From the IMG/VR virus record IMGVR_UViG_2718218402_000003: a stretch of DNA of 33,125 bases; one strand, 5' to 3'. The notes under the pieces are model-generated. The model was not told the DNA's origin and made no database searches. It saw nothing but the letters and a program-made list of their open reading frames with translations. The DNA comes from a virus (Duplodnaviria > Heunggongvirae > Uroviricota > Caudoviricetes). Positions 1,153 to 31,844 of this stretch are shown piece after piece (within the stretch, counting starts at the first letter, position 1; every line of letters starts with the position of its first letter). Made by a program: the position numbers and the translations under genes.

Positions 1153-1206
1153 TTCAGCCATTACCCTGAAAACCACGCATTTATTTGTCCTTTAAGGAGT
1201 CATTTC

Positions 1207-1692
1207 ATGAAAACCATTTCACATAATTCCACCACATCTTCTGTTTCCGTAACCGCTGCATCAGGGAATGACCAGCCTCAGCTGGTTGCCACCATAGTCC
1301 CTGATGAACAGCGCATCAGCTTCTGGCCGCAGCATTTTGGCCTCATTCCACAGTGGGTGACCCTAGAGCCCCGTATCTTCGGCTGGATGGACCGTCTTTG
1401 CGAAGACTACTGCGGTGGTATCTGGAATCTGTACACACTGAACAACGGTGGCGCATTTATAGCGCCCGAACCGGATGACGATGATGGCGAAACATGGGTA
1501 CTGTTCAATGCCATGAACGGTAACCGCGCTGAAATGAGCCCGGAAGCCGCCGGCATTGCCGCCTGTCTGATGACGTACAGTCATCATGCCTGTCGTACGG
1601 AGTGTTATGCCATGACGGTCCATTATTACCGGTTGCGGGATTACGCCCTGCAGCATCCGGAATGCAGCGCCATTATGCGCATCATCGACTGA
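1207..1692 (+). CDS. Antirestriction protein, KlcA/ArdB-like (YfjX/YafX family)
   Basis: 161-aa ORF with acidic DDDDGE stretch; conserved position between DUF932 and RadC-like genes. Confidence 0.7.
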   Translation: MKTISHNSTTSSVSVTAASGNDQPQLVATIVPDEQRISFWPQHFGLIPQWVTLEPRIFGWMDRLCEDYCGGIWNLYTLNNGGAFIAPEPDDDDGETWVLFNAMNGNRAEMSPEAAGIAACLMTYSHHACRTECYAMTVHYYRLRDYALQHPECSAIMRIID

Positions 1693-1707
1693 ATGGAGAG
1701 AAGCACA

Positions 1708-2184
1708 ATGCAACAACTTTCCTTTCTGCCCGGAGAGATGACGCCCGGCGAGCGCAGTCTCATTCTGCGGGCCCTGAAAACCCTGGACCGCCATCTTCAT
1801 GAACCCGGCGTGGCCTTCACCTCCACCCGTGCGGCACGGGAATGGCTGATTCTGAACATGGCGGGACTGGAGCGTGAAGAATTCCGGGTGCTGTATCTGA
1901 ATAACCAGAATCAGTTGATTGCCGGTGAAACCCTCTTCACCGGCACCATCAACCGCACGGAAGTCCATCCCCGGGAAGTGATTAAACGCGCCCTGTACCA
2001 CAATGCCGCTGCCGTGGTGCTGGCGCACAATCACCCGTCCGGTGAAGTCACACCCAGCAAGGCAGACCGCCTTATCACGGAACGTCTGGTACAGGCACTG
2101 GGCCTGGTGGATATCCGGGTGCCGGACCATCTGATAGTCGGTGGCAACCAGGTTTTCTCCTTTGCCGAACATGGTCTGCTTTAA
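1708..2184 (+). CDS. RadC-like JAB/MPN domain protein (YeeS/YkfG/YfjY family)
   Basis: HNHPSG JAMM-type motif in translation; GGAGAG Shine-Dalgarno 7 nt upstream of ATG at 1708; the track ORF starts 15 nt earlier at 1693. Confidence 0.85.
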   Translation: MQQLSFLPGEMTPGERSLILRALKTLDRHLHEPGVAFTSTRAAREWLILNMAGLEREEFRVLYLNNQNQLIAGETLFTGTINRTEVHPREVIKRALYHNAAAVVLAHNHPSGEVTPSKADRLITERLVQALGLVDIRVPDHLIVGGNQVFSFAEHGLL

Positions 2185-2246
2185 CCCGTCACAACCACAT
2201 CACGCTTGTTTTCACTTTTATCTTCTGTCTTCAGAGGTATCACACT

Positions 2247-2468
2247 ATGAAAATCATCACCCGTGGTGAAGCCATGCGTATTCACCAACAACATCCGGCA
2301 TCCCGTCTTTTTCCTTTCTGTACCGGCAAATACCGCTGGCACGGCAGCACTGAAGCGTATACCGGTCGTGAAGTGCAGGATATTCCCGGTGTGCTGGCCG
2401 TGTTTGCTGAACGCCATAAGGACAGTTTTGGCCCGTATGTCCGGCTGATGAGCGTCACCCTGAACTGA
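2247..2468 (+). CDS. DUF987-family protein (YeeT-like)
   Basis: 73-aa ORF in the conserved position between RadC-like and antitoxin genes. Confidence 0.65.
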   Translation: MKIITRGEAMRIHQQHPASRLFPFCTGKYRWHGSTEAYTGREVQDIPGVLAVFAERHKDSFGPYVRLMSVTLN

Positions 2469-2630
2469 TGTTCCGTCACCCGGAAAACGAGTACGACCAG
2501 ATGGACTCAGACGCCGCTGTGGATGAGGCCATTCTCGTCAATGCATACATCTTCACCGAAACCGGTCAGCGCGCCGGCTGACCTGTCATCGTTAAACCAT
2601 TCTTAACCACTTTTCAGAGAGGATTTTATC

Positions 2631-2999
2631 GTGTCAGACAAACTCTCCGGGATAACTCATCCCGACGACAATCACGACCGCCCCTGGTGGGGGCTTCCCT
2701 GCACAGTGAGGCCCTGTTTCGGGGCACGTCTGGTGCAGGAGGGTAACCGCCTGCATTACCTTGCCGACCGCGCCGGTATCAGAGGCCTGTTCAGCGATGC
2801 AGATGCGTACCACCTGGACCAGGCCTTTCCGCTGCTGATGAAACAACTGGAACTCATGCTCACCAGCGGTGAACTGAATCCCCGCCATCAGCATACCGTC
2901 ACGCTGTATGCGAAAGGTCTGACCTGCAAAGCTGACACCCTCGGTAGCGGTGGTTACGTTTATCTGGCTGTTTATCCGACGCCCGAAACGAAAAAGTAA
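2631..2999 (+). CDS. cbeA: Type IV antitoxin CbeA (YeeU/YfjZ/YafW family)
   Basis: 122-aa translation near-identical to my recollection of E. coli YeeU ([11 protein letters not shown]...[11 protein letters not shown]); GTG start as given by the track. Confidence 0.85.
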
Positions 3000-3088
3000 A
3001 CCACCGGAATAACCTTCTGCTCCGGCCTGGTGCTTTCACCACGCCACTTTTCCATTTTTCATCTCTGCATATCAGGAAAACCTTCAGT

Positions 3089-3463
3089 ATGAAAACATTA
3101 CCCGATACACACGTACGGGAGGCATCGAGCTGCCCGTCTCCCGTCACCATCTGGCAGACTCTGCTCTCCCGACTACTGGGCCAGCATTACGGCCTTACAC
3201 TGAATGACACACCGTTCGCCGATGAACGTGTGATTGAGCAGCATATTGAAGCTGGCATTTCACTGTGTGATGCGGTGAATTTTCTCGTGGAAAAATACGC
3301 GCTGGTGCGTACCGACCAGCCGGGATTCAGCACTTGTCCCCGCTCTCAGTTAATAAACAGTATTGATATCCTCCGGGCTCGCCGGGCGACCGGCCTGATG
3401 ACCCGCGACAATTACAGAACGGTAAATAACATTACCCTGGGTAAGCATCCGGAGAAACGATGA
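3089..3463 (+). CDS. cbtA: Type IV toxin CbtA (YeeV/YpjF/YkfI family, cytoskeleton-inhibiting)
   Basis: 124-aa ORF immediately downstream of cbeA; recognised family. Confidence 0.85.
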
Positions 3464-3948
3464 AACTTTCCCTGATGCTGGAAGCCAACAGAATTAATGT
3501 GCAGGCACTGAACATGGGGCGAATTGTCGTTGACGTCGATGGTGTTAATCTCACTGAACTGATTAACAAGGTCGCTGAAAACGGTTATTCACTCCGCGTG
3601 GTGGAGGAATCCGACCAACAGTCAACCTGCACACTACCACCGTTTGCAACCCTTGCCGGCATACGCTGCAGTACCGCACATATCACGGAAAAGGATAACG
3701 CCTGGCTGTACTCGCTGTCACACCAGACCAGTGACTTCGGTGAATCAGAATGGATTCATTTCACAGGTAGCGGATATCTGTTACGTACCGATGCGTGGTC
3801 ATATCCGGTTCTGCGGCTTAAACGCCTGGGGCTGTCAAAAACGTTCCGTCGTCTGGTTATCACACTTACCCGACGTTATGGCGTCAGTCTCATTCATCTG
3901 GATGCCAGCGCTGAATGCCTGCCGGGTTTACCCACTTTCAACTGGTAA
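3460..3948 (+). CDS. YeeW-like protein
   Basis: 162-aa ORF overlapping the cbtA stop by 4 nt; conserved position downstream of cbtA. Confidence 0.55.
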
Positions 3949-3959
3949 CCAGGAACAAC

Positions 3960-4157
3960 ATGAAATCATTAACCACGGAAACCGCACTGGATATTCTGAT
4001 TGCGTGGCTGCAGGACAATATCGACTGCGAATCGGGAATTATCTTTGACAACAATGAGGATAAAACGGATTCAGCAGCACTGTTGCCCTGTATCGAACAG
4101 GCCAGAGAGGATATCCGTACCCTGCGCCAACTGCAGCTTCAGCACCAGAACCGGTGA
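3960..4157 (+). CDS. Small hypothetical protein (65 aa)
   Basis: ATG at 3960 (MKSLTTETALDIL...) inside the track ORF 3915-4157; followed by a terminator-like hairpin. Confidence 0.4.
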   Translation: MKSLTTETALDILIAWLQDNIDCESGIIFDNNEDKTDSAALLPCIEQAREDIRTLRQLQLQHQNR

Positions 4158-4199
4158 GTCTCACTCATCATCTCACTCACCAGACTTCATTCCACTGAC

Positions 4200-4230
4200 G
4201 CCAGCCTGAACACGGCTGGCGTTTTCATTT
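4200..4230 (+). terminator. Rho-independent terminator-like hairpin
   Basis: GCCAGCC-tgaacac-GGCTGGC stem-loop followed by GTTTTCATTT. Confidence 0.5.
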
Positions 4231-4253
4231 ATCTGCAAAAAGGAATATCGATT

Positions 4254-4823
4254 ATGTCTGAAATCACAGTCTCCCGTCCGGAAGTGGTCAACGAGAATAC
4301 GGACGTTATCTGCTCCACCTCAGTCAGGTACAGGTCACTGGAATATGATAATTTTCCGGAAATCAGCGAAGCGAACATTCTGAGCACATTTGAACAACTG
4401 CACCAGAACAAAGATGAAGTGTTTGAACGGGGAGTGATCAACGTCTTCAAAGGGCTGAGCTGGGATTACAAAACCAACTCACCCTGTAAATTTGGCAGTA
4501 AAATTATCGTCAACAATCTGGTGAGATGGGACCAGTGGGGATTTCATCTTATCAGTGGAATGCAGGCAGATCGCCTGGCTGACCTGGAAAGAATGTTGCA
4601 TCTGCTCAGCGGTAAACCGATCCCCGACAACCGAGGGAATATCACCATTAATCTGGATGACCACATACAGTCCGTTCAGGGTAAAGGACGCTATGAAGAT
4701 GAGATGTTCATCATTAAATACTTTAAGAAGGGATCTGCACACATCACTTTCAAAAGGCTGGAGCTGATTGACAGAATTAACGATATAATAGCCAGGCACT
4801 TTCCTTCTGTGCTCTCAGCCTGA
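4254..4823 (+). CDS. Hypothetical protein (189 aa)
   Basis: Clean ORF with AGGAATA RBS-like sequence upstream; no family recognised with confidence. Confidence 0.5.
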   Translation: MSEITVSRPEVVNENTDVICSTSVRYRSLEYDNFPEISEANILSTFEQLHQNKDEVFERGVINVFKGLSWDYKTNSPCKFGSKIIVNNLVRWDQWGFHLISGMQADRLADLERMLHLLSGKPIPDNRGNITINLDDHIQSVQGKGRYEDEMFIIKYFKKGSAHITFKRLELIDRINDIIARHFPSVLSA

Positions 4824-9759: not shown

Positions 9760-10160
9760 TTCCTCCCCCTTGACTAATTCATTAACACATAAACTTTGTA
9801 GTGCACGGACTAAATTGCCTTTCTGGCTTCATCACTGACAATTTTTCTGTTATTGACTATTCCTAATATAGTAGGAAAGTTCTTTAAGTGATCGGTCGTA
9901 CTCATCTATCTTTCATACTTACTCTCAACTATCAAAAGTACAGGATTTATTATGAAGTTATGGCCTGTGTTGACTGGCATTGCACTCTCTTTCACTCTTA
10001 TAGCATGTAAGGCCCCGACACCACCTAAAGGTGTGCAGCCGATTACAAATTTTGACGCCAACCGCTACCTCGGAAAATGGTATGAAATAGCTCGCTGATC
10101 TTACCCAGCAATAGTGGACACGCGGCTAAGTGAGTAAACTCTCAGTCAGAGGTGACTCAC

Positions 10161-10460
10161 ATGACAAAAACAGTATCAACCAGTAAAAAACCCCGTAAAC
10201 AGCATTCGCCTGAATTTCGCAGTGAAGCCCTGAAGCTTGCTGAACGCATCGGTGTTACTGCCGCAGCCCGTGAACTCAGCCTGTATGAATCACAGCTCTA
10301 CAACTGGCGCAGTAAACAGCAAAATCAGCAGACGTCTTCTGAACGTGAACTGGAGATGTCTACCGAGATTGCACGTCTCAAACGCCAGCTGGCAGAACGG
10401 GATGAAGAGCTGGCTATCCTCCAAAAGGCCGCGACATACTTCGCGAAGCGCCTGAAATGA
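10161..10460 (+). CDS. insE: IS3 OrfA (InsE-like)
   Basis: 99 aa from ATG 10161; HTH plus leucine-zipper-like region. Confidence 0.85.
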
Positions 10461-11323
10461 AGTATGTCTTTATTGAAAAACATCAGGCTGAGTTCAGCAT
10501 CAAAGCAATGTGCCGCGTGCTCCGGGTGGCCCGCAGCGGCTGGTATACGTGGTGTCAGCGGCGGACAAGGATAAGCACGCGTCAGCAGTTCCGCCAACAC
10601 TGCGACAGCGTTGTCCTCGCGGCTTTTACCCGGTCAAAACAGCGTTACGGTGCCCCACGCCTGACGGATGAACTGCGTGCTCAGGGTTACCCCTTTAACG
10701 TAAAAACCGTGGCGGCAAGCCTGCGCCGTCAGGGACTGAGGGCAAAGGCCTCCCGGAAGTTCAGCCCGGTCAGCTACCGCGCACACGGCCTGCCTGTGTC
10801 AGAAAATCTGTTGGAGCAGGATTTTTACGCCAGTGGCCCGAACCAGAAGTGGGCAGGAGACATCACGTACTTACGTACAGATGAAGGCTGGCTGTATCTG
10901 GCAGTGGTCATTGACCTGTGGTCACGTGCCGTTATTGGCTGGTCAATGTCGCCACGCATGACGGCGCAACTGGCCTGCGATGCCCTGCAGATGGCGCTGT
11001 GGCGGCGTAAGAGGCCCCGGAACGTTATCGTTCACACGGACCGTGGAGGCCAGTACTGTTCAGCAGATTATCAGGCGCAACTGAAGCGACATAATCTGCG
11101 TGGAAGTATGAGCGCAAAAGGTTGCTGCTACGATAATGCCTGCGTGGAAAGCTTCTTTCATTCGCTGAAAGTGGAATGTATCCATGGAGAACACTTTATC
11201 AGCCGGGAAATAATGCGGGCAACGGTGTTTAATTATATCGAATGTGATTACAATCGGTGGCGGCGGCACAGTTGGTGTGGCGGCCTCAGTCCGGAACAAT
11301 TTGAAAACCAGAACCTCGCTTAG
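10457..11323 (+). CDS. insF: IS3 OrfB transposase (InsF-like, DDE catalytic domain)
   Basis: 288 aa in the -1 frame relative to orfA with TGA/ATG overlap; matches IS3 InsF as I recall it. Confidence 0.9.
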
Positions 11324-14231: not shown

Positions 14232-14906
14232 AGCCTGCTTCTCCTTGCCTTTCGGCACGTAAGAGGCTAACCTAGATTTGCCGTTCATAGATTGAGCCTC
14301 AGATTAATGTTAAGCGTCTTGCAGGACGCGTAATGTTAACTGGGGCTTTTCTCTATCTGCCGTTGGTGTTCATGCCTGAGACAGATAGCCTCAAGCACCC
14401 GCAGCCATTCTACTTAACTCCCGTCACCTCGCCAATATGAAATCAGTCAGAAAGGCGATCCATAAGAACAACAGCAAGGCAATAAATTGCCATTACAGCA
14501 GCAATAGCCAGCGCACATTTGAGAACCAGCACCACAACCTCCTGTATTGGACGTACACCAGTCCTGATAAATATGAGGCTGTCTCGTCAGTGATTCAATA
14601 CAACTATTGGGTATAGTTTCTGTGATTTTGTTCTGTAGAAATGGAACACAACAACCAGTCACCACCAGCACTTCTTTAAATACGCCAAGTCCGACGCAAG
14701 CTAACCTTCTAGGCCGCTTTGAGCGAAGAGCGGACGCTCGCATCTGTCCCAACACACTGAGGGCTTCACGAACACCTAGGTGTACTCGTCAACTGGGAAA
14801 AAGTCAGATTATCTGTAAGCGTACAGCCTGAACCGTCTGGTCAGAATCTGACGAATTAGACAAAGTGGTGTCCACCAAATAAGTAGTGGGAACCAAAGTA
14901 TCAGAT

Positions 14907-15287
14907 ATGCAGAAAAATGTGACTCCCGGCAGGCGAAAAGGCTGCCCTAATTATCCTCCCGAATTTAAACAGCAGCTCGTTGCTGCCTCCTGTGAACCCG
15001 GGATATCCATCTCAAAACTTGCTCTTGAAAATGGCATTAACGCCAATCTGTTGTTCAAATGGCGACAACAATGGCGCGAGGGAAAGCTGCTATTACCTTC
15101 TTCAGAGAGCCCCCAGCTACTTCCTGTGACTCTCGATGCAGCTGCCGAACAGCCAGAATCGCTCGCAGAGGACCCGGAAACCCTCAGTATCAGCTGTGAG
15201 GTAACGTTCCGGCACGGGACGCTCCGCTTCAATGGCAATGTCAGCGAAAAGCTCCTGACTCTGCTGATACAGGAACTGAAGCGATGA
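14907..15287 (+). CDS. IS66-family TnpA (orf1)
   Basis: ATG at 14907 (MQKNVTPGRRKG...); the track start at 14886 is a GTG. Confidence 0.8.
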   Translation: MQKNVTPGRRKGCPNYPPEFKQQLVAASCEPGISISKLALENGINANLLFKWRQQWREGKLLLPSSESPQLLPVTLDAAAEQPESLAEDPETLSISCEVTFRHGTLRFNGNVSEKLLTLLIQELKR

Positions 15288-15631
15288 TCCCGTTACCTTC
15301 CGGGACCAAAATTTGGCTGGTTGCCGGTATCACCGATATGAGAAATGGCTTCAACGGCCTGGCTGCGAAAGTACAAACGGCGCTGAAAGACGATCCCATG
15401 TCCGGCCATGTTTTCATTTTCCGGGGCCGCAGCGGCAGTCAGGTTAAACTGCTGTGGTCCACCGGTGACGGACTGTGCCTCCTGACCAAACGGCTGGAGC
15501 GTGGGCGCTTCGCCTGGCCGTCAGCCCGTGATGGCAAAGTGTTCCTTACGCAGGCGCAGCTGGCGATGCTGCTGGAAGGTATCGACTGGCGACAGCCTAA
15601 GCGGCTGCTGACCTCCCTGACCATGCTGTAA
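15284..15631 (+). CDS. IS66-family TnpB (orf2)
   Basis: 115 aa, overlapping tnpA stop; characteristic IS66 orf2. Confidence 0.85.
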
Positions 15632-15680
15632 ATCTCTTTATCCTGGTTGTCACAGAATAAGCCCGGTAAAATACGGGCTT

Positions 15681-17219
15681 ATGAACGACATCTCTTCTGA
15701 CGACATCTTCCTGCTGAAACAGCGCCTGGCCGAACAGGAAGCGCTGATCCACGCCCTGCAGGAAAAGCTGAGCAACCGGGAGCGCGAAATAGACCATCTG
15801 CAGGCGCAGCTGGATAAACTCCGCCGGATGAACTTCGGCAGTCGTTCCGAAAAAGTCTCCCGCCGTATCGCACAAATGGAAGCCGATCTGAACCGGCTTC
15901 AGAAAGAGAGCGATACGCTGACTGGTAGGGTGTATGACCCGGCAGTACAGCGTCCGTTGCGTCAGACCCGCACCCGTAAGCCGTTCCCTGAATCACTACC
16001 CCGTGACGAAAAGCGACTGTTGCCTGCGGCGCCGTGCTGCCCGAACTGCGGCGGTTCACTGAGCTATCTGGGCGAGGATACCGCCGAACAGCTGGAGTTG
16101 ATGCGTAGCGCCTTCCGGGTTATCCGGACGGTACGGGAAAAACATGCCTGTACTCAGTGCGATGCCATCGTGCAGGCACCTGCACCTTCGCGGCCCATCG
16201 AGCGGAGTATCGCCGGACCGGGGCTGCTGGCCCGCGTGCTGACCTCGAAGTATGCAGAGCACACCCCGCTGTATCGCCAGTCAGAAATATACGGCCGGCA
16301 AGGTGTGGAGCTGAGGCGTTCACTGCTGTCGGGCTGGGTGGATGCATGCTGCCGGCTGCTGTCTCCGCTGGAAGAGGCGCTTCATGGCTATGTCATGACT
16401 GACGGCAAACTCCATGCCGATGATACCCCGGTCCAGGTACTGCTGCCGGGTAATAAGAAGACGAAGACCGGGCGGTTGTGGGCGTATGTTCGTGATGACC
16501 GCAATGCAGGGTCAGCGTTGGCACCTGCAGTGTGGTTCGCTTACAGCCCGGACAGAAAAGGCATCCATCCGCAGACTCATCTTGCCTGCTTCAGCGGTGT
16601 GCTGCAAGCGGATGCGTACGCCGGGTTCAACGAGCTGTATCGCAATGGTGGGATAACGGAAGCTGCCTGCTGGGCTCATGCCCGCCGAAAGATCCACGAT
16701 GTGCACGTCCGCATCCCGTCAGCACTGACGGAAGAAGCCCTGGAGCAGATCGGTCAGTTGTACGCCATAGAGGCGGATATAAGGGGAATGCCGGCAGAGC
16801 AGCGGCTTGCTGAACGTCAGCGAAAAACGAAACCGTTGTTGAAATCCCTGGAAAGCTGGTTGCGTGAAAAGATGAAGACCCTGTCGCGACACTCAGAGTT
16901 GGCGAAGGCGTTCGCGTACGCACTTAACCAGTGGCCGGCACTGACGTACTATGCGAACGATGGCTGGGTGGAAATCGACAACAACATCGCTGAAAATGCC
17001 CTGCGGGCGGTCAGTCTGGGTCGTAAAAACTTCCTGTTCTTCGGCTCTGACCATGGTGGTGAGCGGGGAGCGCTACTGTACAGCCTGATCGGGACGTGCA
17101 AACTGAATGACGTGGATCCAGAAAGCTACCTTCGCCATGTGCTTGGCGTCATAGCAGACTGGCCGGTCAACCGGGTCAGCGAACTGCTTCCGTGGCGCAT
17201 AGCACTGCCAGCTGAATAA
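15681..17219 (+). CDS. IS66-family transposase TnpC
   Basis: 512 aa with N-terminal leucine zipper, CxxC...CxxC zinc finger and DDE region. Confidence 0.9.
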
Positions 17220-17329: not shown

Positions 17330-20300
17330 CTATGTATCTGAGCCAAACATAGAGCGCCGCCTTGTTATTTTATAATAAGTGGGATTTTCATTATCCACCT
17401 CAAAATCAGAGAAGAAGTGGTTATCTCTTAATGCTGTTAATAAACTTTGATTAGTTGAATCAACTTCAATTTTAGGTTTGCCTCGCCCCAAAATTTTACT
17501 GAACTCCGATAAACCAAGCAGATCAAGATACTCTTTGCAAGTCGTCTTACTCAAATCCTTACCCGGCAACAAAGCGATTAGCAGTGCTATTTTATTCTGC
17601 ATATTCAGTCCCTCTGCGACAAACAGGTTTTTTAGTAACGGTTCAGAAACATCATTAGGACTTGCTATCAATGCTGATATATCCTGTATTGCTCGACTCA
17701 AGATGAGCGACTGAGTAGAGGTTCCCCAAGTTTTATAAGATGACGTCAAGATTAGAAGTTCATCTGGTTTAAAATTATTTTCTAAAATATAGTCATTAAC
17801 GACCTGAGAGTAATTCTTACTATAAATAGCCAACGGAGTTTTAACAAACTCGAGTAGCTTAACTTTCAAATCATCATCAACTTTCCAAGAAAGTATTGAT
17901 ATAGCCTCATCCAAAATAAAGTTATCAATCGTCATTAATTCAACGTATGCCCTGATATTCTTATGAATATAATAGGAAAGTTGCTCTGAATAGTTATCTC
18001 GTATGAAATTAAGTGGCGCAACATTCATACGAATAATATTTTTATCCACTAATATTTTGAACTTATCACTCGCGATATTACTAGCGCTAAAGGATGTTTT
18101 ACAAATAATATTTAGTGAGCAAATTAATTTTTCATATTTATCATTTGATAAATCATTACAGATAACAATCGATTTAAATAATTTACCTTTAAGCTCGTTA
18201 TCAATATTAATATTTTGAAAATTCAGGTCTACATCAGTTCTATTGATAAATTCGATAAGTGAGTCATCCAGTCCATCAACATGTTCAAAATAAGAGACAA
18301 TATTTTCCTCAGAGCACACTGCTCTATCTTTATCCAACAAAGATGACCATAAAGATTCGCTCTCAACCTCACTCAGAGATGTCACGAAAGTTTGCAAAGC
18401 GTTTATATACTGGCCTTTTTGTTCATCAGATATTCCCTCATTATTAAGAACGGATAAAACAATGGATTCATCATCCACGATTGAACCATCACAACTAGAT
18501 AAAACCATATCCAGATAGTCCCTAATATGGTTATTAACATAACTAGCCAAGGGAGAATCAGGTTGTGACATCACTAGTGTATAGTTCTTATGGCGAATAT
18601 CATCTTCACTATTAAGCGTGTAAACCTTACTCAGCATTAAGGTCAGGTTGGAAAAATTAATATCATAAAGTGAATGCTGGTAAACCGCATCAAAGAGTAC
18701 TTTATTTGCGTTTTCAAATTTAATACTGACAAAAGAAACGTTAAGCAACTTAAAACCACTAATTAATTTGTCAACCTTCGGTTCTGATATTGCTAAATAA
18801 CCTGCCGAATCAGAGATGTAATCAGTCAGACAATCATCAATATTAATGGCCTCGATGGCGTCATTGGCAGAATAATAAAACGTGCCTATAGAGTAGAGTT
18901 TAACCCAATCAGCAGAAAATTCACTCTCTGTCAGCGCATAAGAAAAAAACTCAGGCCACTGTGTATTTAATCGATTAATGAAGACAGGCTGAGCCCTCTC
19001 AGTTTCAAAGTAACCACGAATAAACTCAACTCTTCTATCTTTTCTTAGTTGTTTGAATAAACGTTTTATTAAGTTTACCTGGGCTGGCGTTTGAAGCAGA
19101 TAAGCTAATAAATCAAAATTAAGCGCCTCTTCCTGTTCAAAATCCACTTCTCGAAGGCGGGCAACGACCAGCTTGGGGTTCTTGAGTTGATAAGTGAACT
19201 CTTTGCCTTTTTGATCGGTAATGCTGCGTAAAAACATCTTATCAATTCGACTCAGGCTATTTTCATAAAAATAGGTCATATAGTCGGTATAGGTTTCATC
19301 AATATAACCATCACGAATAAGGTATTTAAGCAAGTCAAAATACTCACTGCTTTTTATTTCATTAAAGTCTCTTTCCTCTCCAATTTCATTGGTATAGGTG
19401 AGTTTAAATATTTCATCAATGTTTTCTCTAGTTATTACTTCTTTAAGTCTTTTGTTTCTAGAATCAACCAAACTTTCTCTTGATCTTGATATAAGCTCAT
19501 TAATTTCTTCTATTTTACCATTAAATTTATTTTCAACACTTTCTTTTCTAGCCGCCCTTCTCTTTGCTATATCAGCTTTCTCAGCCTGATTATAGTGAGG
19601 ATGATTATTATATCTAGATAATTCCTTATCGTATATAGCATCAACCTCCTGACTAGAGTTGAGTATTTCATCATTGATTGCCTCAATCTCTTTTTTTCTA
19701 TCTCTAATATCTTTTTCTATTTTCTTTATTTCTTCAATAATAAGGTTGTCTTTTTCACTAAATATGGTATAAACCATACCTTGATTAAGTTGCAACTCAC
19801 TAAAATCTCTTGGGAAAATATTCTTATAGGCAATAATGGCCAACATTTTATTACAGTCAAGTTCTGTCGTGTTTAATTTGTTATAATAAATTTGAAATTC
19901 GTTATAAATATTCTTCAATATTCTCATATCATCAATATATAAAGACATCCCTTGTAGAAATCTTTCATTGAACAACTTGAGAATACCACCACCATCAAAA
20001 TGTGTGATAAACTGATCGTAAGAGTTAGAACTATCAACAACAGGAATAACTGGAATGATATAATCAAAGAATTTGGTTCTATCCTTCGAAATGAAGATAT
20101 CATCACGAAGCAAGTAAATAAAACGTAACGTCGATTTCTTGTGCCCTGCTGTGTCCCGTTGAATATTAACCAGTCTGTTAACCTCATGAAGACGTTCAAA
20201 GATGTTATTACTATTAAAACGGTCCATGTCTTCAAAAACAATGGCATCAGCATCAACGTTCTCGAAAAGGTACAATACTTCATTTAAATATCTATCGAAA

Positions 20301-20962
20301 TAAGACTCGTTACTTTCTTCAAAAATCTCTATTTCATTACCCTGTAAATTTATTTTCTTAAGAACATTACGATTCTTTTGGGTTTTTATTAACTTGTAAA
20401 TGAAAATACAAGATAGGATAGTACATATAAACCCACTAATTAAAAGCGTATCGTATTTAGTTGATAATGTAAGTAGTGTCTTTATATTACCTTCAGATAA
20501 AAGTGAAACAAACTTTTCCCACTTATTAAATAGCGTGATATGTAGTATCATAGCGATAAATAACACCGTAAAGATGGTGTTTATCACAATGTTGTTAGTT
20601 TTTATTTTTTTCTTTACTTTAAAATGTGTCTGGGGAATATCATCAGCATTAATTTGGTGAATTAACTGGTTAAGAACTTTACCTTCTAACGCGGTTTCAT
20701 TTATATCTTTACTTGGTTCATTAGTTTCAGCTTCCTCAATCGATCTGAAATGAGCAAGTGAGATATGAACAAACTTTATATTTGAATGACTTTTCTTATA
20801 GGATTCGATAAGACTACTTTTTCCTGCGCTATATTGCCCTGATATCGCAACATTTTTTAGATCGTTATTGGCAAAAACAAAATCTATCGCATTTTTATAT
20901 ACACCCAGCTCAACATCGCTGAACGGCGTTAACTTTTGAAATTTATAGCTATCATCACTCAT
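17330..20962 (-). CDS. Large (1210 aa) membrane-inserted P-loop NTPase, KAP/YobI-like; candidate stand-alone phage-defence or abortive-infection protein
   Basis: Walker A GQYSAGKS (aa 42-49, nt about 20816-20839), two predicted TM helices (aa about 125-145 and 172-192) between Walker A and Walker B IVFEDMD (aa 241-247); coiled-coil-like segment aa about 400-500; about 950 aa of unassigned C-terminal sequence; strongly AT-rich by eye; SD GGAAGGGA upstream; own terminator. CDS is certain, function is inferred. Confidence 0.6.
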   Translation of the reverse strand: MSDDSYKFQKLTPFSDVELGVYKNAIDFVFANNDLKNVAISGQYSAGKSSLIESYKKSHSNIKFVHISLAHFRSIEEAETNEPSKDINETALEGKVLNQLIHQINADDIPQTHFKVKKKIKTNNIVINTIFTVLFIAMILHITLFNKWEKFVSLLSEGNIKTLLTLSTKYDTLLISGFICTILSCIFIYKLIKTQKNRNVLKKINLQGNEIEIFEESNESYFDRYLNEVLYLFENVDADAIVFEDMDRFNSNNIFERLHEVNRLVNIQRDTAGHKKSTLRFIYLLRDDIFISKDRTKFFDYIIPVIPVVDSSNSYDQFITHFDGGGILKLFNERFLQGMSLYIDDMRILKNIYNEFQIYYNKLNTTELDCNKMLAIIAYKNIFPRDFSELQLNQGMVYTIFSEKDNLIIEEIKKIEKDIRDRKKEIEAINDEILNSSQEVDAIYDKELSRYNNHPHYNQAEKADIAKRRAARKESVENKFNGKIEEINELISRSRESLVDSRNKRLKEVITRENIDEIFKLTYTNEIGEERDFNEIKSSEYFDLLKYLIRDGYIDETYTDYMTYFYENSLSRIDKMFLRSITDQKGKEFTYQLKNPKLVVARLREVDFEQEEALNFDLLAYLLQTPAQVNLIKRLFKQLRKDRRVEFIRGYFETERAQPVFINRLNTQWPEFFSYALTESEFSADWVKLYSIGTFYYSANDAIEAINIDDCLTDYISDSAGYLAISEPKVDKLISGFKLLNVSFVSIKFENANKVLFDAVYQHSLYDINFSNLTLMLSKVYTLNSEDDIRHKNYTLVMSQPDSPLASYVNNHIRDYLDMVLSSCDGSIVDDESIVLSVLNNEGISDEQKGQYINALQTFVTSLSEVESESLWSSLLDKDRAVCSEENIVSYFEHVDGLDDSLIEFINRTDVDLNFQNINIDNELKGKLFKSIVICNDLSNDKYEKLICSLNIICKTSFSASNIASDKFKILVDKNIIRMNVAPLNFIRDNYSEQLSYYIHKNIRAYVELMTIDNFILDEAISILSWKVDDDLKVKLLEFVKTPLAIYSKNYSQVVNDYILENNFKPDELLILTSSYKTWGTSTQSLILSRAIQDISALIASPNDVSEPLLKNLFVAEGLNMQNKIALLIALLPGKDLSKTTCKEYLDLLGLSEFSKILGRGKPKIEVDSTNQSLLTALRDNHFFSDFEVDNENPTYYKITRRRSMFGSDT

Positions 20963-25288: not shown

Positions 25289-25477
25289 ATGAAAACGTTA
25301 TTACCAAACGTTAATACGTCTGAAGGTTGTTTTGAAATTGGTGTCACTATCAGTAACCCAGTATTTACTGAAGATGCCATTAACAAGAGAAAACAAGAAC
25401 GGGAGCTATTAAATAAAATATGCATTGTTTCAATGCTGGCTCGTTTACGTCTGATGCCAAAAGGATGTGCACAATGA
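25289..25477 (+). CDS. dicB: Cell-division inhibitor DicB
   Basis: 62 aa MKTLLPNVNTSEGCFEIGVTISNPVF...; ATG at 25289 within the track ORF. Confidence 0.85.
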   Translation: MKTLLPNVNTSEGCFEIGVTISNPVFTEDAINKRKQERELLNKICIVSMLARLRLMPKGCAQ

Positions 25478-25665
25478 ATTCAGCATTTGTGCTTGTTCTG
25501 ACAGTTTTTCTTGTTTCCGGAGAGCCAGTTGATATTGCAGTCAGTGTTCACAGGACAATGCAGTAGTGTATGACTGCAGCAACCGAACAGAAAATTCCCG
25601 GTAACTGTTACCCGGTCGATAAAGTTATTCACCAGGATAATATCGAAATCCCGGCAGGTCTTTAA
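25474..25665 (+). pseudogene. ydfD: ydfD-like lysis gene with in-frame TAG at codon 31
   Basis: MNSAFVLVLTVFLVSGEPVDIAVSVHRTMQ-TAG(25564-25566)-CMTAATEQKIPGNCYPVDKVIHQDNIEIPAGL; overlaps the dicB stop (ATGA). Confidence 0.55.
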
Positions 25666-27116
25666 AACAGTTCCGTAATAAATATCCGGTTTCATTCTTA
25701 TATGCCAGCAATGGCAGGGATTTGTTCATCCTTAAATCTGTCATGAGGTTAAAACAAATGAGTAAAGTCTTTATTTGCGCCGCTATTCCTGACGAACTGG
25801 CAACAAGGGAAGAAGGCGCTGTGGCTGTAGCCACAGCCATTGAAGCTGGCGACGAACGCCGTGCTCGAGCAAAATTTCACTGGCAATTCCTGGAACATTA
25901 TCCGGCTGCTCAGGACTGCGCTTATAAATTTATTGTCTGCGAGGATAAACCTGGCATACCCCGCCCTGCCCTCGATTCATGGGATGCTGAATATATGCAG
26001 GAAAACCGCTGGGATGAGGAGTCTGCTTCTTTTGTCCCGGTTGAGACTGAATCCGATCCGATGAACGTCACTTTTGACAAGCTGGCCCCTGAAGTACAGA
26101 ACGCTGTCATGGTTAAGTTCGACACATGTGAAAAAATCACCGTTGATATGGTTATTAGCGCACAGGAATTGTTGCAGGAAGACATGGCAACATTCGACGG
26201 ACATATCGTTGAAGCGTTGATGAAAATGCCAGAAGTTAACGCCATGTATCCGGAGCTTAAGTTGCACGCCATTGGGTGGGTTAAGCATAAATGTATTCCT
26301 GGTGCTAAATGGCCCGAAATTCAGGCAGAGATGCGCATCTGGAAAAAACGTCGCGAAGGTGAACGCAAGGAAACCGGAAAATACACGTCTGTTGTTGATC
26401 TCGCCCGCGCCAGAGCCAATCAACAGTACACTGAAAATTCAACAGGAAAAATCAGCCCGGTCATTGCTGCCATTCATCGCGAATACAAGCAGACATGGAA
26501 AACACTGGATGACGAACTGGCCTACGCTCTCTGGCCTGGTGATGTGGATGCTGGAAACATTGACGGCAGCATCCATCGCTGGGCAAAAAAAGAAGTTATC
26601 GACAACGACCGCGAAGACTGGAAGCGTATCTCGGCATCAATGCGCAAACAGCCTGATGCCCTTCGCTACGACCGCCAAACTATTTTTGGCCTTGTCCGTG
26701 AGCGTCCGATCGACATTCACAAAGATCCCGTAGCACTGAACAAATATATCTGCGAATACCTGACGACAAAGGGCGTGTTTGAGAATGAAGAAACAGACCT
26801 GAGCACTGTTGATGTTCTCCAGTCATCAGAAACACAAACTGATGCAGTGGAAACTGAGGTATCTGATATCCCAAAAAATGAAACCGCGCCGGAAGCTGAA
26901 CCATCTGTAGAGCGTGAGGGGCCGTTCTATTTCCTCTTCGCAGATAAGGACGGAGAAAAATACGGTCGCGCAAACAAACTTTCTGGTCTGGATAAGGCAC
27001 TGGCTGCTGGCGCCACTGAAATCACAAAAGAAGAATATTTTGCCCGAAAAAATGGCACATACTGAACCGCCCCGGGAATCCTGGAGACTAAACTCCCTGA
27101 GAAAGAGGTAAACAGG

Positions 27117-27443
27117 ATGACTAAAAATACACGTTTTTCCCCCGAGGTCCGTCAACGGGCAGTTCGTATGGTTCTGGAAAGTCAGGGCGAATATGACTCA
27201 CAATGGGCGGCAATTTGTTCCATTGCCCCAAAGATTGGCTGTACGCCAGAGACTCTGCGAGTGTGGGTTCGTCAGCATGAACGGGATACCAGGAGTGGTG
27301 ATAGTGGACTCACCACCGCTGAACGTCAGCGTCTGAAAGAGCTGGAACGTGAAAATCGTGAACTGCGCCGCAGTAACGATATCCTTCGCCAGGCTTCCGC
27401 TTATTTTGCGAAGGCGGAGTTCGACCGCCTCTGGAAAAAATAA
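27117..27443 (+). CDS. IS629-like OrfA
   Basis: 108 aa [22 protein letters not shown]... Confidence 0.85.
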
Positions 27444-28330
27444 TGCCACTGCTGGATAAGCTGCGTGAGCAGTACGGGGTCGGACCGGTATGCAGTGAAC
27501 TGCATATTGCCCCGTCAACGTATTACCACTGTCAGCAACAGCGACATCATCCTGATAAACGTAGTGCCCGTGCGCAGCGCGATGACTGGCTGAAGAGAGA
27601 GATACAGCGCGTATACGATGAAAATCATCAGGTGTACGGTGTGCGTAAAGTCTGGCGCCAGTTGTTACGCGAAGGTATCAGGGTGGCCAGATGTACAGTG
27701 GCGCGCCTCATGGCGGTTATGGGACTTGCCGGTGTTCTCCGGGGTAAAAAGGTCCGTACTACCGTCAGCCGGAAAGCCGTTTCCGCAGGCGACCGCGTAA
27801 ACCGTCAGTTCGTGGCAGAACGTCCTGACCAGCTGTGGGTGGCTGATTTTACTTACGTCAGCACATGGCAGGGCTTCGTCTATGTGGCGTTCATCATTGA
27901 TGTGTTTGCCGGATGCATCGTGGGGTGGCGAGTCTCATCGTCTATGGAAACGACATTCGTGCTGGATGCACTGGAGCAGGCGTTGTGGGCCCGTCGGCCG
28001 TCCGGCACAGTCCATCACAGTGATAAAGGTTCTCAGTATGTATCACTGGCCTATACGGAGCGACTAAAAGAAGCAAAACTGCTGGCATCAACAGGGAGTA
28101 CAGGTGACTCGTATGACAACGCGATGGCGGAGAGCATCAATGGTCTTTACAAAGCGGAGGTAATACACCGTAAGAGCTGGAAAAACCGTGCAGAAGTGGA
28201 ACTGGCCACACTCACGTGGGTGGACTGGTATAACAATCGACGATTGCTGGGAAGGCTGGGTCATATCCCTCCGGCAGAAGCAGAAAAAGCTTATTATGCT
28301 TCCATCAGAAACGATGATCTGGCAGCCTGA
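27443..28330 (+). CDS. IS629-like OrfB transposase (DDE)
   Basis: 295 aa in the -1 frame relative to orfA (TAATG overlap). Confidence 0.9.
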   Translation: MPLLDKLREQYGVGPVCSELHIAPSTYYHCQQQRHHPDKRSARAQRDDWLKREIQRVYDENHQVYGVRKVWRQLLREGIRVARCTVARLMAVMGLAGVLRGKKVRTTVSRKAVSAGDRVNRQFVAERPDQLWVADFTYVSTWQGFVYVAFIIDVFAGCIVGWRVSSSMETTFVLDALEQALWARRPSGTVHHSDKGSQYVSLAYTERLKEAKLLASTGSTGDSYDNAMAESINGLYKAEVIHRKSWKNRAEVELATLTWVDWYNNRRLLGRLGHIPPAEAEKAYYASIRNDDLAA

Positions 28331-29614
28331 GTTCACAGATAAAACACTCTCCAGGAAAACCGGGGCGGTTCATACACGGGCTTACCGCAAAATGTAGATA
28401 CCGCTGAAGATTCAGAACAACCAGAGCCGATAAAAGTTACCGCTGACGAAGTAAACAAAATTATGCAGGCAGCCAATATCAGCCAGCCTGACGCCGATAA
28501 GTTGCTTGCTGCATCACGTGGTGAATTTGTTGAAGGGATTAGTGACCCGAATGATCCGAAATGGGTTAAGGGGATCCAGACCCGCGATTCTGTGAACCAG
28601 AACCAGCATGAATCGGAACGGAACTACCAAAAAGCGGAACAAAACAGTCCAAATGCGTTACAAAACGAGCCAGAAACGAAACAGCCTGAACCAGTGGCGC
28701 AACAGGAAGTGGAAAAAGTCTGCACCGCCTGCGGTCAGACCGGCGGCGGCAACTGCCCTGATTGTGGCGCGGTGATGGGCGACGCAACATACCAAGAAAC
28801 ATTCGATGAAGAGTATCAGGTTGAAGTTCAGGAAGATGATCCGGAGGAAATGGAAGGCGCTGAACATCCACACAAGGAGAACACTGGCGGCAATCAGCAT
28901 CACAATAGCGATAATGAAACTGGCGAGACGGCAGATCACCCAATTAAGGTGAACGGTCATCACGAAATCACATCCACCAGCAGGACGTGTGACCATCTAA
29001 TGATCGACCTTGAAACCATGGGAAAAAATCCTGATGCCCCGATCATCTCAATAGGTGCAATATTTTTCGATCCGCAAACCGGAGATATGGGACCGGAATT
29101 TAGTAAGACTATCGATCTGGAAACTGCTGGCGGAGTCATTGATCGGGACACCATTAAATGGTGGCTTAAGCAATCACGCGAAGCGCAATCTGCCATTATG
29201 ACCGATGAAATCCCGTTAGATGATGCACTGTTACAATTGCGGGAATTTATCGACGAAAACTCCGGTAAATTTTTTGTTCAGGTTTGGGGAAATGGAGCCA
29301 ACTTCGACAACACGATTTTGCGCCGTTCATACGAACGGCAGGGGATCCCCTGCCCGTGGCGTTACTACAACGATCGCGATGTACGCACAATCGTTGAGCT
29401 GGGGAAAGCCATAGACTTCGATGCCAGAACGGCTATTCCATTCGAAGGTGAGCGCCATAATGCACTTGATGACGCCCGTTACCAGGCAAAATACGTTTCA
29501 GTTATCTGGCAAAAACTGATCCCGAGTCAGGCTGATTCTTAATGTTCAACTGTCGCCGGTTGTGACTGGTATTCTGCAACCGGCGCTCGTCTGATGTAAG
29601 AGATAAAGAAATCG

Positions 29615-29905
29615 ATGAGCGAAGTAATCATGATTGTCTCTCCCGGCAAATGGGTATCCGAAGAGCAGTTAATTGCGCTGAAAGGAATAAAAAAAGGTAC
29701 GTTAAAAAAGGCCCGGGAAAAATCGTTTATGGAAGGAAGGGAATATAAGCATGTCGCTCATGACGGTATGCCATGGGATAACAGTCCATGCTTTTACAAC
29801 CTGGAAGAAATTGATCGCTGGATTGAGCGCCAGGCATCAGCGAGACCAAGAGTAACCGGCTCATTTAAACCGTCTGGTCTGTTTCCTCCGGCTCTACAAA
29901 AATAA
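29615..29905 (+). CDS. Excisionase-like protein (putative Xis)
   Basis: 96-aa ORF between the exonuclease and int; assignment by position and size only; its 3' end abuts an IS remnant. Confidence 0.4.
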   Translation: MSEVIMIVSPGKWVSEEQLIALKGIKKGTLKKAREKSFMEGREYKHVAHDGMPWDNSPCFYNLEEIDRWIERQASARPRVTGSFKPSGLFPPALQK

Positions 29906-30582
29906 TGTCCATCATTTTTAATGGACACTATCGTATGAAACACCGGACCTGGATCACTGAAGCTTTACGTCTTCACTTTGAAGAACATTTACCCCGGGTT
30001 GTGGCCGGGCGTCGCCTGGGTGTACCAAAATCAACAGTTTGTAGTATGTTCGTGCGCTTTCGGAGAGCTGGCCTTTCGTGGCCTTTGCCCGCAGGCATGT
30101 CGGAGCAGGAACTTGATGCCTGCCTTTACGGACAATTTTCCACGGTACCAGTCGTACGTCCTGAAAGCACCGTTATATCCGAAGCCCCCGTGGTAAAAAA
30201 ACGTCCCCGGCGGCCCAACTTCCCTTATGAGTTTAAAATCGCCTTAGTGGAGCAGTCACTGCAGCCCGGAGCCTGTGTGGCGCAGATCGCCCGGGAAAAC
30301 GGAATCAACGATAACCTGCTCTTCAACTGGCGCCATCAATACCGGAAAGGTGGCCTGCTGCCTTCCGGAAAAAATATGCCGGCACTGCTTCCCGTGACGT
30401 TAACGCCGGAGCCGGATAATAAAATCCCGGCCCCCGCACAGGAACCAGAGCAGATAAATACACCGTCCGACAGTCTGTGTTGTGAGCTGATTCTGCCGGC
30501 CGGAACTCTCAGGCTTAAAGGTAAACTGACGCCGGCGTTATTACAGACACTTATCCGCGAAATGAAAGGGAGCAGCCACTGA
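29905..30582 (+). CDS. Chimeric ORF: unidentified HTH-like N-terminus fused to an IS66-family TnpA homologue
   Basis: C-terminal part (from about aa 95: [20 protein letters not shown]...[16 protein letters not shown]...) parallels TnpA at 14907-15287; N-terminal part ([11 protein letters not shown]...) does not. Confidence 0.45.
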
Positions 30583-31787
30583 TGATATCTCTCCCTGCCG
30601 GTTCTCTGGGATGTGATGTGTCAGAGCAACTGGAGCTTATCAGCAGCGCCTTTAAGGTTATCGAAACACAACGTCCGAAACTGGCCTGTTGCCGGTGCGA
30701 CCATATCGTGCAGGCACCGGTGCCTTCAAAACCCATTGCACGCAGTTATGCCGGAGCGGGGCTCCTGGCCCATGTCGTCACCGGAAAATATGCAGACCAT
30801 CTGCCGTTATACCGCCAGTCAGAGATATACCGCCGTCAGGGTGTGGAGCTGAGCCGTGCCACACTGGGGCGCTGGACTGGTGCCGTTGCTGAACTACTGG
30901 AGCCGCTGTATGACGTCCTGCGCCAGTATGTGCTGATGCCCGGTAAAGTCCATGCTGATGATATCCCCGTCCCGGTCCAGGAGCCGGGCAGCGGTAAAAC
31001 CCGGACAGCCCGGCTGTGGGTCTACGTCCGTGATGACCGTAACGCCGGTTCACAGATGCCCCCGGCGGTCTGGTTCGCGTACAGTCCGGACCGGAAAGGT
31101 ATCCATCCACAAAATCACCTGGCCGGTTACAGCGGTGTGCTTCAGGCCGATGCTTACGGTGGTTACCGGGCGTTATACGAATCCGGCAGAATAACGGAAG
31201 CCGCGTGTATGGCTCATGCCCGGAGAAAAATCCACGATGTGCATGCAAGAGCGCCCACCGACATCACCACGGAAGCCCTGCAGCGTATCGGTGAACTGTA
31301 TGCCATCGAGGCAGAGGTCCGGGGCTGTTCAGCAGAACAGCGTCTGGCGGCAAGAAAAACCAGAGCCGCGCCACTGATGCAGTCACTGTATGACTGGATA
31401 CAGCAACAGATGAAAACACTGTCGCGTCACTCAGATACGGCAAAAGCGTTCGCATACCTGCTGAAACAGTGGGATGCACTGAACGTGTACTGCAGTAATG
31501 GCTGGGTGGAAATCGACAACAACATCGCAGAGAACGCCTTACGGGGAGTGGCCGTAGGCCGGAAAAACTGGATGTTCGCGGGTTCCGACAGCGGTGGTGA
31601 ACATGCGGCGGTGTTGTACTCGCTGATCGGCACATGCCGTCTGAACAATGTGGAGCCAGAAAAGTGGCTGCGCTACGTCATTGAACATATCCAGGACTGG
31701 CCGGCAAACCGGGTACGCGATCTGTTGCCCTGGAAAGTTGATCTGAGCTCTCAGTAAATATCAATACGGTTCTGACGAGCCGCTTAC
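30140..31787 (+). mobile_element. Defective IS66-family element (internal deletion; left end degenerate)
   Basis: Right IR ...CAATACGGTTCTGACGAGCCGCTTAC ending 31787; left-IR-like sequence only partially recognisable around 30136-30170; tnpB and the 5' third of tnpC are absent. Left boundary is approximate. Confidence 0.55.
30582..31757 (+). CDS. N-terminally truncated IS66-family transposase (tnpB-start/tnpC fusion)
   Basis: 391 aa; MISLPAGS resembles the TnpB start MIPLPSGT; from [16 protein letters not shown] it aligns to TnpC residues about 128-512 of the intact copy. Confidence 0.8.
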
Positions 31788-31844
31788 GACCAAGACGTCA
31801 TCTTACTTGACTAAAAGCCACACTAACTAATGAGAGAAGTTGAA

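Follow-up and report, generated by a model that had tools for sequence, protein, structure and literature searches.

An IS629-type insertion in the exonuclease gene of a Qin-like prophage

Described relatives of the element and of the interrupted gene

The IS629 reference sequence is reportedly the one from S. sonnei of Matsutani & Ohtsubo 1990, and IS1203 and IS3411 are isoforms of IS629. Three IS629 subtypes occur, differing by 4–5% (PMC3271280). IS629 target duplications measure 3–4 bp, and 62% of the O157:H7 copies are located in prophages (Rump et al. 2011, PMC3271280). The element in the window (the whole stretch of 33,125 nt analysed here) resembles the IS629/IS1203 insertions in O157:H7/STEC prophages of that study in family, length of 1310 bp, 3–4 bp duplication, and preference for prophages. 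Finished O157:H7, O111, and other genomes likewise have IS1203/IS629 in the orthologous exonuclease gene. Unlike those sites, the position here (after gene nt 1305) is found in none of the collections searched. The subtype also appears to differ, being 99% identical to some O157:H7-strain copies, whereas most other hits in the gene are of the IS1203 isoform (95.4%).

The C-terminal domain of the interrupted protein is comparable to phage T4 DexA and M. tuberculosis Rv2179c (PF16473), with a profile match over the whole length and the DxE, D, and H-x4-D motifs. In the present protein the domain makes up the C-terminal fifth of 823 aa, and the ~640 residues in front of it have no counterpart in DexA or Rv2179c. 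The anti-phage DexA homologues HREX/EcD have lost the tetramer-forming Asp (DexA D90 is Ala in EcD) and kept the catalytic residues (Kang et al. 2025, PMC12153337). They protect against T4 and selectively digest 5hmC-containing DNA (PMC12153337).

RecE (exodeoxyribonuclease VIII) of the Rac prophage is encoded at the corresponding place, in the early-left operon ahead of xis-int. The non-catalytic middle region, including a 4-Cys motif, is common to both proteins, while the DEDDh domain stands here in place of the RecE 5'-3' nuclease domain. In Rac, recE is followed by recT, whereas here the window and the intact locus both have xis as the next gene, with no recT partner.

The K-12 gene ydfE (b1577), located after dicB-ydfD as here, consists of nt 1–767 of the exonuclease gene at 99.87% identity, followed by IS2E. 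It is likewise ended by an IS3-family element, but this is a 706-bp IS2 fragment (IS2E) with its breakpoint at nt 767, and a deletion has taken the remainder of the gene together with xis and the 5' portion of intQ. Because these parts are deleted, excision would not restore the K-12 gene. The original prediction described ydfE as the same gene truncated by a different IS, which is correct, although the lesion is an IS2 fragment plus a deletion and not a simple insertion.

Anatomy of the element and its insertion site

The element and the two gene parts comprise the following features.

25758..27062, plus strand: 5' part of the prophage exonuclease gene, codons 1–435, start ATG 25758, ending ...KNGTY
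27060..27062, no strand: TAC, left copy of the target-site duplication (codon 435, Tyr)
27063..28372, plus strand: complete IS629-type insertion sequence, IS3 family, 1310 bp
27063..27087, plus strand: left terminal inverted repeat (IRL), TGAACCGCCCCGGGAATCCTGGAGA, pairing with the right repeat at 22/25 positions
27063..27065, plus strand: TGA, first three bases of IRL and in-frame stop of the upstream gene fragment
27117..27443, plus strand: orfA of the element, 108 aa, helix-turn-helix (PF01527, E 4.5e-12)
27398..27514, plus strand: ALIL pseudoknot (RF01497, 120.9 bits; gathering score 50)
27443..28330, plus strand: orfB of the element, 295 aa, DDE/rve catalytic domain (PF00665, E 1.1e-25)
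28348..28372, minus strand: right terminal inverted repeat (IRR)
28373..28375, no strand: TAC, right copy of the target-site duplication
28376..29542, plus strand: 3' part of the exonuclease gene, codons 436–823 and TAA stop

The element starts with TGAACCGCCCCGG and ends with CCGGGGCGGTTCA, so that its termini read TGAACC...GGTTCA. The inverted repeats are imperfect, and the ends and length fit the 5'-TG...CA-3' form and ~1.3 kb size of the IS3 family. The orfB frame lies in phase -1 relative to orfA, with an A6 run (TGG AAA AAA TAA TG) at the orfA stop. The ALIL pseudoknot stimulates a programmed -1 frameshift at the A6 run, which yields an orfA-orfB fusion. The orfB product scores 312 bits against NF033516 (cut-off 160), and orfA/orfB, the rve domain, and the pseudoknot are all intact. 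Copies with 100% identity over the 1310 bp occur in NZ_CP151039.1 and NZ_CP151038.1, and E. coli 19KM2326N has copies of 100% identity. Chromosomal copies of O157:H7 strains match the element at 99.0–99.2%, and those with an IS1203-family annotation (IS1203 isoform) at 95.4%. The predicted IS629-like identity is supported by length, gene organisation, and model matches, and indirectly by likeness to the O157:H7-strain copies.

The target-site duplication is the 3-bp TAC, and no longer duplication is compatible with the flanks. Since the intact allele has a single TAC at this place, the pair is a true target-site duplication. The upstream ORF reads ...KNGTY and then TGA. As the element starts with TGA and sits at a codon boundary, translation ends right after Tyr435.

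The exact junction occurs in none of 5426 complete E. coli genomes, nor in the viral or metagenome contigs. The truncated products (435 aa and 359 aa) and the altered Xis have no exact record in the assembly collection. The absence of the junction and truncated products is consistent with a recent, strain-private event; the insertion appears to be private to this strain and is presumably recent, and its site may be of use as a typing marker. A candidate for the same site in opposite orientation, in NCCP 13918, was rejected, as it lies 26 nt downstream, after nt 1331. The target duplication of the NCCP 13918 insertion is also TAC, by coincidence.

The restored protein and its prophage setting

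Deleting 27063–28375 (the element and one TAC) gives an ORF of 2472 nt and 823 codons with a single terminal stop. The restored ORF aligns without gaps to the intact gene annotated "exonuclease" (WP_097760831.1) in the Qin-like prophage of E. coli 19KM2326N, and the protein is identical. The sole nucleotide mismatch is synonymous, at nt 129, and falls in the 5' part, which corresponds to nt 1–1305 of the intact gene; its codons 1–255 correspond to the K-12 ydfE pseudogene. Chance resemblance is excluded, with the element 100% identical to known copies and both gene halves matching one protein. A clean in-situ insertion into one gene, with the TGA of the left end serving as its stop, had been predicted, and excision and translation agree with this in every respect but size: the exonuclease-like gene encodes 823 aa and not ~830 aa.

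The 3' part is now untranslated from the native start. Its first in-frame ATG, at 28463, opens a 359-aa ORF with the whole PF16473 domain. The ORFs at 25758–27065 and 28463–29542 should be annotated as one IS-disrupted pseudogene and not as two genes. The restored protein has these regions.

26493..27062, plus strand: RecE-like middle, first half, aa 246–435
28376..28939, plus strand: RecE-like middle, second half, aa 436–623
28994..29509, plus strand: Rv2179c/DexA-like DEDDh domain, putative 3'-5' exonuclease, aa 642–813 (PF16473, E 1.9e-67)

The PF16473 match reaches 226.8 bits (cut-off 27) and covers profile positions 2–177 of 177. The best solved relative of the domain is T4 DexA (8kel, E 1.8e-6), and a PADLOC DEDDh match is also found (E 4.4e-6). 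By motif and alignment, the DEDDh residues are D645 and E647 in IDLET, D747 in NFD, and H796 and D801 in HNALDD. In the T4 DexA alignment the DxE and the NFD/SFD Asp are matched; the H-x4-D lies past its end and is assigned by motif only. With all motif residues present, the C-terminal DEDDh-type domain of the original prediction is confirmed, and by sequence the domain is assigned as a probable 3'-5' exonuclease. In the window, the element separates it from the start codon of the gene. The loss of D90 seen in EcD does not occur here, where DexA D90 aligns with the Asp of PLDDAL in the DexA alignment. Fragments of the restored protein searched against PADLOC defence-system models give nothing beyond a generic CRISPR-associated DEDDh domain. 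The homologues at hand are at least 88% identical, and the domain is decisively identified by sequence.

The middle region scores 283 bits against the RecE model NF007259 (cut-off 1269) and covers only model positions 271–600 of 877. BLASTP against RecE gives 40% identity over aa 262–627 (E 1e-62), restricted to RecE residues 278–592 and locally above 80%. A 450-nt stretch shared with recE is 86% identical at the DNA level, and the 4-Cys motif C551–C565 lies inside the second RecE-like half. The match is partial and below the cut-off, and recT is not adjacent.

The exonuclease gene is the last of the dicB-ydfD operon of a Qin-like lambdoid prophage, with xis and int just downstream. A near-identical prophage in 19KM2326N has the same element in ydfB instead, and its exonuclease gene is intact. 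A full-length copy of the gene is found in at least 3536 of 5426 complete E. coli genomes and in 17 phage records, such as phage HannyBb (99.6% aa identity). A scan of species-representative genomes finds intact or K-12-type copies only. The window's prophage is damaged elsewhere too: ydfD has a nonsense codon, xis contains the remnant of an IS66-family element, and there are more IS copies. An ISCro1-type element in common with TUM1880 was considered and rejected, the TUM1880 copy being in int and not in xis. With ydfD, the exonuclease gene, and xis all damaged, the prophage is probably locked in place, and the locus is an example of IS629-type elements eroding cryptic Qin-like prophages.

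Parallel insertions and competing explanations

A survey of complete E. coli genomes, as the original prediction had suggested, maps at least 12 other independent IS629/IS1203 insertions, at 12 positions, in the exonuclease gene family. They have 3–4 bp duplications, and excision restores an ORF of 821–823 aa in 9 of the 11 that can be tested. The family has also been hit by IS2 and by further IS3-family elements, and K-12 has its IS2-linked truncation. An IS629-type element in or beside a gene copy (within ~2.4 kb) occurs in only 84 + 66 of 5426 genomes. The recurrent inactivation proposed earlier holds in that independent IS hits recur; it does not follow that they are selected, since by far most genomes retain a full-length gene. 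Over-use of the IS-borne TGA as a stop was rejected, with phase 0 in 6 of 13 insertions (P=0.24). Both IS629 ends read TGA inward, so a TGA stop is expected in one of three phases in either orientation, and the terminal TGA has no special significance as a stop codon. Of the 12 insertions sampled without positional bias, 8 fall in a 171-nt stretch, gene nt 1263–1433 (scan P 1e-5 to 8e-4).

An IS629-type transposition into codon 435/436 of the Qin-like prophage exonuclease gene, as a recent and unselected loss of function, is very probably the explanation of this locus. An active element would have entered codon 435/436 by the copy-out-paste-in route, the pathway suggested by its IS3-family membership, and a staggered cut of the target would have duplicated TAC. 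Translation would give an N-terminal fragment of 435 aa that lacks the nuclease domain and could still have some activity. At the junction, the other 388 codons, with the complete DEDDh domain, would lack any start of their own. The 359-aa C-terminal ORF is formally open, and it could be expressed by read-through from the element. The outcome would be a simple loss-of-function allele, presumably neutral and with no sign of selection, that adds to other lesions of a prophage already crippled. Element anatomy, target duplication, ORF restoration, component identities, and parallel insertions are all observed, and nothing contradicts the IS629-insertion explanation. The locus looks like neutral prophage decay in which selection is not demonstrated. 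An IS629 knockout of a prophage gene is a real, ordinary, and well-understood kind of mutation that is already explained, and it has little importance beyond annotation.

An adaptive origin would require that loss of the DexA-like nuclease, or the split into halves, is repeatedly selected, for example where the enzyme is costly upon derepression of the dicB operon, so that the hits are convergent. The count of at least 13 independent IS629/IS1203 insertions, together with the IS2 and other IS3-family lesions and the K-12 truncation, speaks for it, as does the crowding of 8 of 12 events into 171 nt. Yet IS629-type elements at or near the gene are rare beside the full-length copies, and the hits occur mostly in the IS629-rich lineages O157, O111, O103, and O26, as IS load alone predicts. 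Selection for null alleles would favour hits in the 5' part of the gene no less than in its middle, and neighbouring prophage genes are also struck, such as ydfB (19KM2326N) and int (TUM1880). An adaptive origin is highly unlikely.

A gene working in two pieces, an N-terminal fragment and a separate C-terminal one (ATG 28463, 359 aa, full DEDDh) made from IS read-out transcripts, is extremely improbable. The downstream ORF is indeed open from its ATG and holds the entire PF16473 domain, and stand-alone DexA-like proteins of ~200 aa are functional in phages and E. coli (PMC12153337). The insertion cluster moreover lies ahead of the RecE-like/nuclease half, outside the nuclease domain, but two of the mapped insertions are in or beside that domain, at nt 1974 and ~2130, the latter by another IS3-family element. 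An outward promoter from the element was sought at its right end and before 28463, and no sigma-70-like promoter is found at either place; on direct reading, gaagtaaacaaaatt before ATG 28463 has no clear Shine-Dalgarno match. An assembly artefact, with an IS copy in the wrong repeat context, has a practically negligible probability. The element is multi-copy in related genomes and the exact junction is found nowhere else, but both junctions are present, and the 3 bp perfectly duplicated on either side of the element occur once in the intact allele, a pattern that misassembly does not yield, and the same architecture occurs at 12 other positions in finished genomes.

An IS629-type transposition followed by plain neutral decay leaves the clustering at nt 1263–1433 unexplained, and the apparent mid-gene clustering of independent IS629/IS1203 insertions is the sole point possibly worth further work. 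To our knowledge, little is known about IS629 target choice. Some IS3-family members target sequences resembling their own ends. A cluster of targets resembling the IS ends was rejected as far as it is testable, the best match having 3 mismatches in 13, with none inside the cluster. No target motif is common to the insertions, and GC content is unremarkable at 0.44–0.45. A genuine regional IS629/IS1203 hot spot in the central 170 nt (nt 1263–1433, codons 421–478), of which the insertion here is one instance, is unlikely. If it were genuine, either the local DNA would be a preferred target of the IS629 transposase, or insertions would be kept preferentially for separating the N-terminal part from a DexA-like nuclease with an activity of importance in phage-host or phage-phage conflict.

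Structure of the insertion and of the interrupted gene

The exonuclease gene at 25758-29542 is interrupted by a block whose limits were obtained by direct reading and by script.

27063-28372: inserted block, 1310 bp, starting TGAACCGCCCCGG and ending CCGGGGCGGTTCA
27060-27062 and 28373-28375: TAC direct repeat on either side of the block

The terminal inverted repeats of the block match at 22 of 25 positions, and no direct repeat longer than 3 bp fits its edges (script). The ORF that opens at ATG 25758 closes with ...KNGTY and a TGA at 27063-27065, with which the block begins. Excision of 27063-28375 by script yields a 2472-nt ORF of 823 codons with the terminal stop as its sole stop, and the coordinates in the original prediction, 25758-29542, coincide exactly with the start codon and the stop codon of that ORF. 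Both halves belong to one protein, as had been proposed: the restored ORF aligns without gaps over all 2472 nt, with one synonymous difference, to the annotated intact "exonuclease" WP_097760831.1 of E. coli 19KM2326N. In that strain the order is ydfD, exonuclease and xis-int, beside rspB, in a Qin-like prophage. The observation of a split gene is confirmed, and its interpretation is supported with small corrections only.

Of 5426 complete E. coli genomes, 4799 have a homologue, and in at least 3536 of these it covers 80% or more of the gene length. Its cluster at 90% protein identity counts over 23,000 members, almost all of 823 aa, and in PHROG the family is number 2082, "exonuclease". The gene is also found at full length in E. 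ruysiae, E. albertii, Shigella flexneri, and 17 phage records, such as phage HannyBb (99.6% aa identity).

The predicted C-terminal DEDDh-type domain is correct: aa 642-813 match PF16473 (Rv2179c-like 3'-5' exoribonuclease) from end to end (E 1.9e-67), with all five motif residues present (D645, E647, D747, H796, and D801). Among solved structures the best match is 8kel (E 1.8e-6), a 227-aa entry deposited only as "Exodeoxyribonuclease". Its identification as T4 DexA rests on the sister entry 8ken, which departs from it at exactly the S87A/D90A positions given for DexA (PMC12153337). The region aa 246-623 matches the non-catalytic middle of RecE, the Rac prophage exonuclease VIII (NF007259 positions 271-600, score 283 bits, cut-off 1269), with 40% identity by BLASTP and more than 80% around a 4-Cys motif. 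The RecE nuclease domain is absent from the restored protein and a recT neighbour is absent from the locus. Judged by these domain matches, the gene is one that occupies the RecE slot with a DexA-type nuclease.

The intact protein (26493-27062 and 28376-29509, aa 246-813) is a mosaic, in which a T4-DexA/Rv2179c-type domain stands beside the RecE middle in place of the RecE nuclease. A recent study reports that a DexA homologue of E. coli defends against T4 (PMC12153337); in contrast, the intact protein here retains an Asp that is missing in the defence variant.

The IS629-type element and its effect on the gene

The inserted element codes for orfA (108 aa, PF01527) in phase 0 and for orfB (295 aa, PF00665 rve) in phase -1, and orfB scores 312 bits against the NCBIfam IS3 transposase model (cut-off 160). 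An A6 run at the stop of orfA lies within a frameshift-stimulating pseudoknot.

27398-27514: ALIL pseudoknot, Rfam score 120.9 bits (gathering score 50)

The element DNA is 100% identical to both the plasmid and the chromosomal copies of 19KM2326N; its identity is 99.0-99.2% with chromosomal copies of O157:H7 strains and 95.4% with copies labelled IS1203 family by RefSeq. IS629 comprises three subtypes 4-5% apart, one of which is IS1203, and its target duplications are of 3-4 bp (Rump et al. 2011, PMC3271280). Together, the ORFs, model score, pseudoknot, and identity to genomic copies mark the element as an intact IS629-type isoform, which is probably still active. In the near-identical prophage of 19KM2326N, where the exonuclease gene is intact, the same IS variant (100%) lies in ydfB (locus L010, 6281-7590). 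This suggests recent activity of this IS subtype in related prophages.

IS3-family elements transpose by copy-out-paste-in via a circular intermediate (summarized in bioRxiv 10.1101/2023.06.07.543989), and integration with a 3-bp stagger accounts for the TAC duplication. By the sequence, translation ends after Tyr435, the nuclease domain is cut off from the native start, and the gene has presumably lost its function. No promoter-like site was found before the downstream ATG at 28463, and continued function of the gene in split form has little or no support. The same is true of a misassembly, and of an adaptive loss of the exonuclease gene. The gene and the inserted element are both known sequences, and IS insertion of this kind into prophages is textbook biology. 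The junction at this exact insertion site was found in none of the 5426 complete E. coli genomes and in none of the viral or metagenome contigs searched.

Recurrence and position of insertions

Two chimeric queries, in which the gene carried the IS in one or the other orientation, retrieved 84 and 66 genomes with an IS629-type element inside or beside a gene copy. Junctions were mapped by script on fetched representatives of the matches listed, a set that does not include 24 rows of one search and 21 of the other. Among the matches listed, independent insertions lie after local gene nt 709, 813, 1082, 1263, 1329, 1330, 1331, 1373, 1422, 1433, 1747, and 1974; the window's own lies at nt 1305. 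A perfect 3-4 bp duplication flanks 10 of the 12 mapped insertions (the window's excluded), and none was found in VG888-46E9 and OkiPb01680. Excision restores an ORF of 821-823 aa in nine of 11 testable insertions. The NCCP 13918 and OkiPb01680 copies have additional lesions, and the TST3 copy is without the gene 5' end. Two further genomes are hit by IS2 at about nt 1100 and by another IS3-family element at about nt 2130.

K-12 had been cited as a further case. MG1655 ydfE (b1577, an annotated pseudogene) corresponds to nt 1-767 of the restored gene at 99.87% identity and then meets IS2E (a 706-bp fragment), beyond which only a 3' portion of intQ is left, alignable to the integrase in the window. 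It is thus the same gene, ended like the window's allele by an IS3-family element, though a different one. Unlike that allele, it also has a deletion that took away the remainder of the gene together with xis and the int 5' end.

Given the mapped independent insertions, the recurrent IS disruption of this gene is real. The predicted recurrent inactivation holds as repeated independent hits confined to a small minority of copies, mostly in IS629-rich STEC lineages, a concentration that IS load alone predicts.

TGA reads inward from either IS629 end, and therefore any insertion at a codon boundary terminates the host ORF right where the IS begins. The terminal TGA does supply the stop here, as predicted, but this phase is not over-used (6 of 13 mapped events against one third expected, P=0.24), and the IS-supplied stop is a curiosity and not a feature.

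Eight of 12 events sampled without positional bias, among the matches listed, fall in nt 1263-1433, a stretch that makes up 7% of the gene.

27020-27190 and 28376-28503: central insertion cluster, 171 nt (comparison loci L011, L013, L014, L016, L017, L022, and L024 from other genomes)

The clustered events have both orientations and different prophage alleles. Scan-statistic simulation gives P of 1e-5 to 8e-4, depending on window width, and about 2e-4 to 5e-4 without the window's own event. The clustered targets show no common motif and no IS-end resemblance, and their GC content is unremarkable. The clustering is a lead and not a result, because it is based on the matches listed, without the 24 and 21 rows.

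Other lesions of the prophage and further features of the window

The window contains a degraded Qin-like prophage, with DicF, dicB, a dicA-type repressor, sok, and cspA-type elements, and the disrupted exonuclease gene is one of its several lesions. The lysis gene ydfD (25474-25665) has a nonsense codon, E31* (G to T, TAG at 25564-25566), as its sole difference from K-12 ydfD. Directly upstream, dicB is intact and encodes the K-12 protein without change. Another lesion lies in the excisionase gene.

29852-31787: IS66-family remnant, 1936 bp, within the xis 3' end

The remnant is flanked by the 8-bp duplication GACCAAGA (29844-29851 and 31788-31795), has tnpA fused directly to an N-truncated tnpC without tnpB, and swaps the last 5 residues of Xis for 18 others. 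Both of its flanks are 100% identical to 19KM2326N.

The left-hand region is very IS-rich. A CP4-type island module at the left end (334-4823; DUF932, antirestriction protein, RadC, CbtA toxin, DUF5983, and DUF4942) is followed by an IS3 copy (about 10152-11323) and a second, apparently complete IS66-family element upstream of the exonuclease region (about 14886-17219). The prophage also has a 1210-aa ORF (17330-20962, minus strand) with a YobI-like P-loop NTPase domain (PF20693, E 8e-123). This ORF, which also hits the 'Tmn' defence model of PADLOC (E 1e-66), may be a prophage-borne anti-phage gene.
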